The notes below the pieces were generated by a model. That model was not told the origin of the DNA. It saw nothing but the letters and a program-made list of their open reading frames with translations, and ran no database searches. The position numbers and the translations under genes are program-made. Below are positions 16,046 through 18,329 of a DNA stretch of 64,000 nucleotides, piece after piece. The DNA is from Candidatus Magasanikiibacteriota bacterium (GTDB taxonomy: Bacteria > Patescibacteriota > Patescibacteriia > Magasanikbacterales > GWA2-37-8). The stretch's first letter is position 1. Each line of letters starts with the position of its first letter. Location: the NCBI GenBank assembly GCA_036744835.1, contig DAIOHD010000001.1:208967-272966 (forward strand). The letters are read 5' to 3'.

Positions 16046-16271
16046 AATTTTGTTTTTGTATTATGTAGTATATAGTATGCATTATGTATTTTTTAGTGTT
16101 AAGTTTATATGTTGCATATTGCATAATACTTAATACTTTATACTTAATATATGCATTATACACCTTTTCTCATTGACGCACAAATGGGTTTTGTGGTATT
16201 ATTTTAGACATTAGAATGGCTGGCAAAAGAGAATGTTCCGGTCTTAATTTTTTTGCTATAATTAAATAAAA

Positions 16272-16331
16272 TTGAATACAATTTGTATTCAAAACTAACC
16301 AATAAAATAAGGGCAAGGCCATTTTATTGGT
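16272..16331 (+). promoter_or_regulatory. Two palindromes in the ECF sigma-factor 5' region
   Basis: TTGAATACAA-T-TTGTATTCAA at 16272-16292, and ACCAATAAAAT-12nt-ATTTTATTGGT at 16298-16331; a TGcTATAAT extended -10 lies about 15 nt upstream. Confidence 0.3.
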
Positions 16332-16395
16332 CGTAGCCCCTTACCTGTTTCCAGGTGAGGGGTGTAACATTTCTTCATTATTAACGTCTACTAAG

Positions 16396-16953
16396 ATGTT
16401 GAGCGGTATTTCTGAAAATATATTGGTTTATAAACTCAAAGCTCACAAAGATCCTGAAGCTTTTGCGTCTCTTTATGATATTTATGTTAAACGAATTTAC
16501 AGGTTCGTTTATTTCAAAGTCAGTAGTCGTGAAGAAGCTGAAGATCTTACTTCTGAAGTTTTTTTGAAAGCTTGGAATTATGTTAATGAAAATAAAGAAA
16601 TAAAAAGTTTTAGCGGTCTTCTTTATAAAATAGCACGAAATAGTATTGTGGACCTTTATCGCAGTAAATCGGTTCGCGCTGAAACTATATTAATTTCTTC
16701 TTTACCTGACGGGATAGAACCTGGGGACGGAGGAAAAAAAGCGAGGGAGATGAACGTTGATTTGGAAGCAAAGGATTTGATAAGGGCGATTAAAAAATTA
16801 AAATTAGAATATCAAGAAGTGTTGACCTTGCGCTATGTAGATGAACTTCAAATAGAAGAAATTGCCGAAATTACTGGTAAGGGAAATATTGCAGTTCGTG
16901 TCACTTTGCATCGCGCCTTGAAAAAATTAAAAAAATTATCAGGAACAGAATAA
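16396..16953 (+). CDS. ECF-type (sigma-70 family group 4) RNA polymerase sigma factor
   Basis: Region 2 (YDIYVKRIYRFVYFKV...AEDLTSEVFLKAW) and region 4 HTH (LEYQEVLTLRYVDELQIEEIAEITGKGNIAVRVTLHRALKKL). The ORF track's TTG at 16327 lies inside the upstream hairpin, so ATG 16396 is preferred. Confidence 0.75.
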   Translation: MLSGISENILVYKLKAHKDPEAFASLYDIYVKRIYRFVYFKVSSREEAEDLTSEVFLKAWNYVNENKEIKSFSGLLYKIARNSIVDLYRSKSVRAETILISSLPDGIEPGDGGKKAREMNVDLEAKDLIRAIKKLKLEYQEVLTLRYVDELQIEEIAEITGKGNIAVRVTLHRALKKLKKLSGTE

Positions 16954-18329
16954 TGTCGATTCGTAATTTCGTATTATTTCGTAAGTTCGTACGTAATTTA
17001 TTTATGTCTCGTGATTTAATCTCACAACTCAAAAATCTCAAACATAAAGATATCACTCCCAGTGATGCGTGGTTGAAGCAAAACCGCGGTATTTTGTTAT
17101 CTCAAATCAAAAACAATGCCGTGTCCAATGCTCATACTTCTTATGAAAATTTTTGGATTGCAATGTCCGTGTTTTTTGGTGAAAAAATGATTTTAAATGT
17201 AGTAAAACCCCTATCTATTCTTTTGATAGTCACTATGGTCGGAACTTCTGGTTGGATAGCTACTGTGGATGCTGCTTACGAAAGTTTACCCGGAGACATA
17301 TTATATGGAGCCAAAAGAGTGGTAGAAAAAACCCAGATTACTACCGCTTCGGTTTTGGGTAATAAAGATACTGAAACTAAACTTCATTCTGAATTTGCCA
17401 AACGTCGCGCCAATGAAATAAAAAAAGTTTCTGTTAGTGATGATCCGAAAAAAACCGAAAGAGTTGTAGAAACAGTAAAAGATTTAAAAAATGAGATGAA
17501 TAATTTGAGTGATAAATTGGAAGGAAGCAAACAAGTTAGTTTAGCGGCCAACACTCTCAAAGAAGTAAAGAAAAATACGGATCAGATTAAAAGCGTTTTG
17601 ACCGAAGTAAAAGATGACCTATCTCTTGTAGCGACTTCAACAGTAGATAAAAATACAGTAGAAGTTATTTCGCAAGCCAAAGACATGGTAAAAGATGTAG
17701 CGGTTAAAACCGTTGAAGCGGTGGTAAGTAAACATCTAGAAGGTGACGTTAGTGTTAGTACGGATGAAATCAAAAAAATGTTAAACGAAACTGTTACTGA
17801 AACTATCAATGAAACCTTGGTTAAAACCGGTAATTTGGTGGGGGTAAATAATATTGTTGAAGCGGTTAAAACAGAAATTAAAGTTCTTGATAGTGCCAGT
17901 TCTACTGCTTTTTCTACAACCAGCTCAGCTGATTTGGCGCAACAAATAGAAAATATAGCCAGCACTACCAAGCAAGCTGCGTTACAAACTCAGGAAATTA
18001 TCAAAGATTCCGATAAAAAGACCGATGAATTACAATCAATGTTAAATAGCGGAGATTTGGCCGGAGTTTTAAATATGGTAAAGGAAGTAAACGAAGTAAA
18101 TAAAACCGTGGAGAAAATTATTGATACGGCGGTTGGCAGTGTTCAATTGGCTTTGCCTCCGGTAGTCAGTGTGGTAAAAGAAAAAACCGAAGCCGGAATC
18201 AGTGTTACTTCAACAGCGGATGTAAAAGTGATAGTGACGAGCACTCCGACGGCTTCAACGACTATCATAGTAACAACTACCCCGGTTAATACGTCTACTA
18301 CGGTAGAGACAAGCACACTTAAAAAATAA
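16953..18329 (+). CDS. Putative anti-sigma factor: short cytoplasmic N-terminus, one TM, long extracytoplasmic coiled-coil / S-T-rich domain
   Basis: Start overlaps the sigma-gene stop (translational coupling); topology typical of ECF anti-sigma partners. Confidence 0.45.
   Translation: MSIRNFVLFRKFVRNLFMSRDLISQLKNLKHKDITPSDAWLKQNRGILLSQIKNNAVSNAHTSYENFWIAMSVFFGEKMILNVVKPLSILLIVTMVGTSGWIATVDAAYESLPGDILYGAKRVVEKTQITTASVLGNKDTETKLHSEFAKRRANEIKKVSVSDDPKKTERVVETVKDLKNEMNNLSDKLEGSKQVSLAANTLKEVKKNTDQIKSVLTEVKDDLSLVATSTVDKNTVEVISQAKDMVKDVAVKTVEAVVSKHLEGDVSVSTDEIKKMLNETVTETINETLVKTGNLVGVNNIVEAVKTEIKVLDSASSTAFSTTSSADLAQQIENIASTTKQAALQTQEIIKDSDKKTDELQSMLNSGDLAGVLNMVKEVNEVNKTVEKIIDTAVGSVQLALPPVVSVVKEKTEAGISVTSTADVKVIVTSTPTASTTIIVTTTPVNTSTTVETSTLKK

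Follow-up and report, generated by a model that had tools for sequence, protein, structure and literature searches.

Promoters used by sigma factors of the extracytoplasmic function (ECF) type are marked by AAC within the −35 and CGT within the −10 element. In Bacillus subtilis, the SigW-RsiW, SigX-RsiX and SigM systems combine a two-domain ECF sigma factor with a single-pass membrane partner encoded after it, and they are autoregulated from promoters of this type, with AAC and CGT elements 16–17 nucleotides (nt) apart (TGTAAC/CGAC for SigX and TGAAAC/CGTA for SigW). The same organization is found in the locus described here, which lies within a 64,000-nt stretch of a Candidatus Magasanikiibacteriota genome (the window) and is composed of an ECF sigma gene, a gene for a membrane protein of the DUF5667 family, a structured RNA element and a gene for a 1211-residue secreted protein. 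Unlike the B. subtilis systems, the partner in the window has no zinc-binding or class I anti-sigma domain, the promoter abuts the sigma start codon, which suggests a leaderless mRNA, and the operon appears to run through the structured RNA into a very large surface-protein gene.

The second system for comparison is the Streptomyces BldN-RsbN pair. RsbN is a class III, single-pass membrane anti-sigma factor whose short, helical binding region in the cytoplasm is recognized by no profile, and BldN drives expression of the cell-surface coat proteins, the chaplins and rodlins (PMC6101532). RsbN, which has a 117-residue cytoplasmic region and contains no DUF5667, is reported to be limited to Streptomyces (PMC6101532). 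By analogy, the window system would most resemble BldN-RsbN, in its unrecognizable short helical anti-sigma region and its surface-coat targets, though its sigma factor scores below the cutoff of the BldN equivalog model, its partner falls outside class I, and no structured intercistronic RNA is described for the Streptomyces pair. We lean toward the reading that the locus is a conserved envelope operon of Patescibacteria, made up of a sigma factor with its own promoter, a membrane partner, an RNA element and a surface-protein gene.

The sigma gene, its promoter and its neighbors

The product of the gene at 16396–16953 (+ strand) is a genuine ECF (group 4) sigma-70 factor, as proposed in the original prediction made from the DNA letters. 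The 185-residue protein, within the ~180–200 residues usual for this group, contains only regions 2 and 4 (Pfam Sigma70_r2, residues 26–92, and r4_2, residues 127–178) and scores above the cutoff of the NCBIfam ECF superfamily model sigma70-ECF (TIGR02937; 89.8 bits, cutoff 42.9). Among the NCBIfam subfamilies, the highest-scoring is the BldN-like equivalog model TIGR02952, at 123.5 bits and thus below its cutoff of 206.45, while weaker matches include the SigW, SigX and SigM models. The annotated TTG start at 16327, which the prediction mentions, is ruled out because homologues align from the ATG at 16396 and the promoter motif lies inside the supposed extension. We found no literature on ECF factors in Parcubacteria, and a survey of 224 motifs mentions neither sigma factors, ECF nor these phyla.

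A genome scan with the sigma protein as query yielded 80 related loci (42–84% sigma identity), all of them from Patescibacteria, including Magasanikbacteria, Falkowbacteria, Buchananbacteria and Parcubacteria; L001–L004 are the four closest genomes. A DUF5667 homologue directly follows the sigma gene in about 74 of the 80 loci, and a homologue of the 1211-residue protein is encoded downstream of the partner gene in about 67. Divergent to the sigma gene in the window is the gene for a 576-residue membrane-anchored protein (14315–16045, − strand), an open reading frame (ORF) with an N-terminal hydrophobic anchor and weak DUF11-like repeats (Pfam E 1e-4, below cutoff), and its homologue is found upstream of sigma on the opposite strand in 56 loci. 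This conserved gene order identifies the window locus as one copy of a widespread four-gene envelope module consisting of the 576-residue protein gene, sigma, the partner and the 1211-residue protein gene. The association of the sigma module with large surface proteins was anticipated in the original prediction and is borne out by this synteny, and the flanking ORFs do carry the N-terminal signal or anchor sequences expected of secreted or anchored proteins.

An ECF-type promoter, TGTAAC-N16-CGTC (16363–16388, +), was identified by motif conservation, with the end of CGTC positioned 7 nt before the sigma ATG. It is embedded in the block GGTGTAACATTTCTTCATTATTwACGTCTACTAAGATG, which is unchanged between the window and the four closest genomes. 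Of the 80 loci, 76 have TGTAAC-N15–18-CGT[CA] directly upstream of sigma; a 16-nt spacer is found in 70, a distance of exactly 7 nt from CGTC to the in-frame start in 62 and an ATG start codon in 71. Within each ~12-kb locus the TGTAAC-N16-CGTC motif occurs essentially only upstream of sigma, and the 64-kb window contains a single full match. The pairing of an AAC-type −35 with a CGT-type −10 element in the factor's own promoter, by which ECF factors are recognized, is thus present as a sequence motif, and TGTAAC-N16-CGTC is likely to be the autoregulatory promoter of the sigma gene. The fixed 7-nt spacing would put the expected transcription start on the A of the ATG or beside it, so that the sigma mRNA would be leaderless or nearly so. 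Conserved placement of the promoter right against the sigma start codon is a new feature.

A weaker ECF-like site, aGTAAC-N17-CGTCTACTA (18270–18295), lies within the 3′ end of the partner gene. It is found only in the window, L001–L003 and L024/L025 and coincides with VTTTP codons, and was rejected as a conserved promoter in favor of a probable coding by-product. A motif scan of the 64-kb window and the ~12-kb loci showed no ECF-type promoter in front of the neighboring surface genes, where the original prediction had suggested looking for them; the large gene is more likely to be reached by read-through.

Autoregulation had first been proposed from an extended −10 element, a palindrome and a hairpin upstream of sigma. 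All three are present, and autoregulation remains likely, but it is the TGTAAC-N16-CGTC motif adjoining the start codon that argues for it, since the palindrome and hairpins are limited to the closest relatives or swapped there. The extended −10-like element TGCTATAAT (16254–16262, +) is unchanged in the four closest genomes. It is followed by the perfect 10-1-10 palindrome TTGAATACAA-T-TTGTATTCAA (16272–16292), which could be either an operator or a 5′ RNA hairpin, and by an AT-rich hairpin whose 11-nt arms (16298–16308 and 16321–16331, +) are 100% complementary and span the TTG at 16327. A second, GC-rich hairpin of 11 bp (16337–16362, +), overlooked in the original prediction, was found by folding. 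The segment 16298–16362 containing these two stable hairpins is an insertion slot of variable content that extends to the ECF −35 element, and in the closest relatives it is occupied by unrelated hairpins or GC-rich repeats. The region 16263–16400 folds far better than shuffled sequence (z = −7.1). Separately, the GC-rich hairpin at 16337–16362 is similar to a hairpin at ~22409–22436 after the large gene.

A repressor bound to the palindrome downstream of the TGCTATAAT promoter could gate sigma expression and act as the main switch. With the palindrome 10–30 nt downstream of the −10-like element, its location is that of a classic operator, and the four closest genomes share both elements. Among those four, however, the palindrome is intact only in L002 and L004, with uncompensated changes in L001 and L003; hairpins, some of them like gene-end hairpins, intervene between the TGCTATAAT promoter and the sigma start; and distant loci have neither TGCTATAAT nor the palindrome, the TGTAAC-N16-CGTC block being all that they share. 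We therefore regard a palindrome-based switch as very unlikely. The window contains 26 overlapping matches, corresponding to ~17 distinct perfect palindromes with arms of at least 10 bp, as compared with mostly 0–2 in Markov-simulated windows (1 of 20 gave 7), so the palindrome is non-random yet not unusual for this genome. The palindrome and hairpins are lineage-specific rather than conserved controls.

Farther upstream, a promoter scan identified a sigma-70-type promoter-like site, TTGACG-N18-TGgTATTAT (16173–16202, +; 10/12 matches plus TG), in a block that is kept in the four closest genomes to which the comparison extended. A minus-strand promoter reading of the conserved block at 16173–16226 was rejected, as its −35 element varies in relatives. 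Between this site and TGCTATAAT, a small hairpin, GGCTGG...CCGGTC, followed by a T-run lies within 16205–16253; it could produce a very short transcript or act as an attenuator, and the folds in relatives are inconsistent.

The DUF5667 partner protein

The partner gene (17004–18329, +) encodes a 441-residue single-pass DUF5667 membrane protein, a putative anti-sigma factor, and is annotated from 16953 as a 458-residue form. The ORF at 16953–18329 does overlap the sigma stop codon as TAATG, which had been taken as translational coupling. In the four closest genomes, a variable non-coding spacer, partly composed of hairpin inserts, separates the sigma stop codon from the conserved partner start ...TTATGTCTCGTGA, and close homologues are 440–442 residues long; the most likely start is therefore the ATG at 17004. 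The TAATG overlap is thus a window-specific ORF extension, and the coupling is not conserved. Short hairpin-forming inserts such as TGTCATTCTGAGCGAAGCGAAGAATC recur in intergenic spacers, including the sigma-partner spacers of L001–L004 and L028 and a site in L006 (5154–5210), which suggests that they are small mobile repeat elements.

DUF5667 (Pfam PF18915) was matched over residues 111–221 of the 458-residue form with 36.8 bits against a gathering cutoff of 27, the outcome of a profile search that had been suggested at the outset, and partner homologues are precomputed as PF18915. The co-directional orientation and the single transmembrane helix of the protein were correctly predicted. The extracytoplasmic part, which contains DUF5667, is charged and all-helical with 19% serine plus threonine, rather than the long serine/threonine-rich domain first described; only the last ~70 residues are rich in these residues (36%). 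The AlphaFold model is all-helical, with a predicted local distance difference test score (pLDDT) of 67, and shows short helices at residues 3–14, 21–38 and 46–58, a long helix at 60–92 that includes the hydrophobic segment, helical bundles with DUF5667 among them and a disordered tail. Few parts of the protein are as conserved as the short cytoplasmic N-terminus: the first 38 residues account for 16 of the 64 alignment columns that are invariant or nearly so, and the C-terminal tail is free to vary. L9, P19, W23 and R28 (numbered in the 441-residue form) are invariant. Conservation of these N-terminal columns fits a conserved cytoplasmic binding partner.

The N-terminal segment did not reveal a recognized anti-sigma domain. 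Pfam searched with residues 1–69 at E up to 10 gave no match, the whole protein gave no match to such a domain either, and the PDB sequence profile and Foldseek searches with the partner returned only generic helical repeats. Class I anti-sigma domains (ASD/ZAS), which have four helices and lie at the N-terminus, are not indicated, as no zf-HC2/RskA-type profile was matched and the N-terminal sequence lacks cysteine, which the HxxxCxxC of ZAS members would require. The size of the segment is compatible with class II and class III anti-sigma domains; the helices at 3–14, 21–38 and 46–58, modeled with pLDDT 57–76, precede the membrane helix. In these classes the domain consists of two helices (CnrY/NepR, class II) or three (RsbN, class III) that clamp regions 2 and 4 of sigma, and sequence profiles miss it (PMC6101532). 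The proposal that the partner is an anti-sigma factor is therefore plausible from context, topology and N-terminal conservation, although the sigma-binding domain that the original prediction looked for at the N-terminus was not recognized there.

The DUF5667 protein might instead be an envelope protein whose expression goes along with that of sigma, acting for instance as a scaffold for the large surface protein or in its assembly, with sigma controlled otherwise, such as by transcription alone. This would account for the lack of a recognized anti-sigma domain, for a cytoplasmic segment of only ~45–60 residues and for the absence of any specific Foldseek match, and DUF5667 is without literature in the papers searched. 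We judge it quite improbable, as the position right after the ECF sigma gene is kept in ~74 of 80 genomes, the protein is single-pass with its N-terminus inside, the short cytoplasmic segment is highly conserved next to a variable C-terminal tail, and two- or three-helix anti-sigma domains missed by sequence profiles exist (PMC6101532). DUF5667 as the partner of an ECF sigma factor is a new feature.

A structured RNA ahead of the large surface-protein gene

The region between the partner and the large gene contains a structured, GC-rich RNA element (18475–18683, +), which was found by folding and comparison and had escaped the original prediction. The island is ~50% GC and the flanking spacer falls to 8% GC. 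The intergenic RNA region folds with z = −6.1 on the sense strand, and the sequence from the 3′ arm of its first hairpin, P1, to the ATG of the large gene is ~95% or more invariant among genomes in which sigma identity is only 81–84%. P1 (18475–18524, +) is a long hairpin supported by compensatory changes among five close genomes. An equivalent hairpin of ~20–28 bp is positioned 0–17 nt after the partner stop codon in all 24 compact loci (mean z = −6.1), with a sequence that differs in each genome, and the core motif follows it by only ~10–15 nt.

The core motif (18538–18585, +), described by a covariance model, is composed of helix a (18540–18547 paired with 18576–18582), which encloses the 5′ asymmetric loop UUACAAGGUCGAG (18548–18560) ending in AAGGUCGAG, and hairpin b (18561–18574), which directly follows the loop. 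It is succeeded by a further hairpin (18590–18628, +) and by module 2 (18634–18683, +), which consists of a stem, UGAC, a hairpin, GCGC and a stem, both identified by folding; the module-2 pattern was visible by eye in many Magasanikbacteria-type loci, though not in every one. Searching 909 kb on both strands with the covariance model, in two rounds, gave 42 hits. About 40 of them are the sole hit of their locus, on the sense strand and at the corresponding position, and the window motif scored 49.3 bits (E 3e-10). In the core alignment, 98.4% of cells are paired, a percentage inflated by the fitting of the alignment to the model, as compared with 64% in column shuffles and 28–42% with slid partners. 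Double changes are found in 12 of 13 pairs, amounting to 161 double-change cells versus 41 in shuffles. An independent test, in which only the 5′ strand was shuffled, recovered helices of at least 5 bp in 43 of 49 sequences, representing 42 different helix sequences. The abundant G-U pairs of the core motif fit the sense strand only.

In a reverse test, metagenomes were searched by RNA sequence alone, which returned 86 stretches; 10 pass the covariance model and the other 76 are chance 17-mer matches that fail it. Each of the 10 instances is followed by the large gene, and the partner is found upstream in 9 and sigma in 6, the DNA ending before the sigma position in the other four, so that all 10 have the same gene neighbors as far as the contig reaches. 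Neither non-coding region of the locus has a match in Rfam 15 (4227 families) at the gathering threshold, and at E up to 10 the window and L016 gave only chance-level hits to microRNAs, small nucleolar RNAs and a small RNA (CyaR). No credible small ORF is present in the RNA leader, which contains only TTG-start ORFs of 34–52 residues.

Three structural interpretations were rejected. A pseudoknot between the GGUCGA loop and UUGACC of module 2 is not supported, since on inspection the natural loop variants GGUUGA (L018) and GGCCGA (L024) have no compensating change in module 2. A kink-turn or T-loop would require unpaired or sheared G-A partners, which inspection did not show in the 3′ strand. 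P1 was rejected as an intrinsic terminator because no U-tract follows it; relatives show an A-rich linker (AAARUU...) there. Structured leaders and intercistronic hairpins by which expression is differentiated within operons, such as surface-layer (S-layer) 5′ untranslated regions (UTRs), repetitive extragenic palindromic (REP) elements and RNase III sites (e.g., rpsO-pnp), resemble the window element in having a long stable helix right after an upstream stop codon and a structured region ahead of a strongly expressed envelope gene. Unlike in those elements, the AAGGUCGAG asymmetric loop of the window is invariant and its flanking helices covary. On this comparative evidence, the AAGGUCGAG core appears to be a specific conserved RNA motif rather than a generic hairpin and, being absent from Rfam, a new feature.

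The gene that follows (18704–22339, +) encodes a 1211-residue secreted protein with a signal peptide, a conserved N-terminal module of ~200 residues and a variable remainder, as shown by ORF analysis and alignment. The protein has no Pfam or NCBIfam match, an S-layer anchoring domain such as SLH included. Conservation is far higher in the N-terminal module (CPxLxAGDMIKV..DGDVFKSW..) than in the remaining protein; the module is also found in other domain architectures and was modeled by AlphaFold with pLDDT mostly 81–97 over residues ~41–230, and its sole fold match is weak and EccB1-like (E 4.5e-3). Such an anchor, conserved and combined with an exterior that varies, would suit a major surface protein or one of S-layer type; S-layer proteins are reported from Patescibacteria in a survey that gives no further detail.

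Sigma, partner, RNA and large gene probably form a single transcription unit, because P1 so closely follows the partner stop codon in the compact loci. A terminator scan of 18330–18703 found no terminator-like site, and the first strong terminator-like hairpins downstream of the sigma gene lie at 22366–22440, where the scan detected a 15-bp stem and the sequence shows a second hairpin with a T-run.

In the envelope operon that we favor, the ECF sigma factor would recognize its own TGTAAC-N16-CGTC promoter, with transcription starting at or within 1–2 nt of the ATG to give a leaderless mRNA. The DUF5667 partner is predicted to hold sigma at the membrane through its short conserved cytoplasmic N-terminus of two or three helices, while its helical extracytoplasmic domain would sense the state of the cell surface. 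Transcription would run on through the ~210-nt structured RNA (P1, the AAGGUCGAG core and the further hairpins) into the gene for the 1211-residue surface protein, which would be the main local output of sigma. The RNA, for which we infer a role in expression, may uncouple expression of the large gene from that of the regulators by processing or cleavage at P1, by stabilization of the 5′ end of the downstream mRNA, or by binding of a factor to the invariant loop.

Several points weigh against this operon. The partner has no known anti-sigma domain by Pfam (E up to 10), PDB sequence profile or Foldseek, and the confidence of its N-terminal model is moderate (pLDDT 57–76 over the three helices). 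The pairing statistics of the RNA core come in part from an alignment fitted to the model, and P1 is similar to GC-rich gene-end hairpins elsewhere (26525–26690), so it could terminate or stabilize the upstream transcript. Two steps, initiation at the ATG and read-through to the large gene, are ones that we infer. In the window and its closest relatives, moreover, 140–560 nt of AT-rich DNA separates the partner from P1, which makes a separate housekeeping promoter for the large gene possible in this spacer (140 nt in the window), and a close relative (L004) has an extra ORF there. That ORF (L004 7934–8400) encodes a small helical protein, and in L060 the same interval holds an apparent N-terminal fragment or paralogue of the large protein (7780–8100), so the spacer tolerates insertions.

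The spacer is also the basis for a different arrangement of two separate units, sigma-partner and the large gene, with the latter transcribed from a housekeeping promoter of its own upstream of P1 and the RNA serving simply as a long 5′ UTR that stabilizes an abundant S-layer-like mRNA and aids its translation; sigma would then not be in control, and the synteny would reflect shared envelope function only. The spacer at 18330–18470 has weak promoter-like sites, insertions between partner and P1 are tolerated in L004, L060 and L032, the ECF-type motif is absent in front of the large gene, and S-layer genes of other bacteria have long structured 5′ UTRs. We nevertheless consider separate units unlikely. 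In the 24 compact loci, the spacing of partner stop codon, P1 and core leaves no room for a promoter outside coding sequence, no conserved promoter-like block was found in the partner 3′ ends of the relatives' loci compared, and the sequence upstream of P1 is unconserved even among the five closest genomes.

A bolder extension of the operon is that the AAGGUCGAG loop represents a new class of cis-regulatory RNA, a ligand or protein switch or a processing signal, which gates the conversion of the ECF transcript into the main surface-protein mRNA, and that DUF5667 proteins are an unrecognized structural class of membrane anti-sigma factors, the two together forming a surface-sensing circuit specific to ultra-small, host-dependent bacteria. 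We think this possible but rather doubtful.

Repeats in the window and the module in Patescibacteria

AT-rich short repeats with heptamer units of the ATACTAW type, in inverted sets, occupy 16057–16149 between the divergent gene and sigma and were found by repeat analysis. The heptamer recurs at 22752–22793 and 23324–23358, and relatives have other short repeats at the place of the 16057–16149 set. The ATACTATATACT motif, for which the original prediction had recommended a genome-wide search, is enriched (8 matches versus 0.34 expected) and occurs only in three intergenic regions of this cluster. It was rejected as a regulon signal, as it is one among many period-7 tandem arrays; arrays with other units are common across the window, and it gives no evidence of ECF control. 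Tandem arrays of 4–8 copies of a 7-nt unit, with a unit specific to each array, were observed in many intergenic regions (14127–14179, 22752–22793, 23324–23358, 28073–28116, 28916–28951, 30152–30206, 35508–35541, 35600–35630, 44468–44497, 44556–44584 and others). Close relatives have different short units at equivalent positions, such as the TATAAAGTC repeats upstream of sigma in L003 and L004.

Clusters of GC-rich hairpins, CCCTCTC...GAGAGGG, are present at gene ends or in 5′ regions (window 26525–26690, the sigma 5′ regions of L002–L004, and L004 12430–12555) in a genome that is otherwise AT-rich. They have the look of a dispersed repeat family, and the base of P1 is similar to them. Two Rfam hits were recorded elsewhere in the window. 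The ribosomal protein L10 leader (RF00557) at 6630–6772 (+; 57.1 bits) lies upstream of the L10/L12 genes and is an ordinary, expected element. A Rickettsia sRNA47 hit at 59356–59659 (−; 68.3 bits, above gathering) is antisense inside a 424-residue ORF resembling a C-terminal processing peptidase and is probably conserved coding sequence rather than a small RNA.

Mostly uncultured, the Patescibacteria (Candidate Phyla Radiation) rely on host-cell contact, and to our knowledge almost nothing is known of their gene regulation. The module described here, common to Magasanik-, Falkow-, Buchanan- and Parcubacteria-like genomes, brings together a sigma factor, a candidate membrane sensor, a folded RNA and a large surface protein, and so provides a concrete, testable circuit for control of the patescibacterial cell surface. 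It also offers defined objects for experiment: a DUF5667 N-terminal peptide in which sigma binding can be tried, a clearly covarying RNA motif missing from Rfam, and a promoter consensus whose fixed spacing to the start codon may exemplify leaderless expression of a regulator as a conserved trait. Should the RNA or the partner work in a new way, the locus would extend the known repertoire of ECF signaling; if not, it would serve as a well-defined marker of a patescibacterial envelope regulon.

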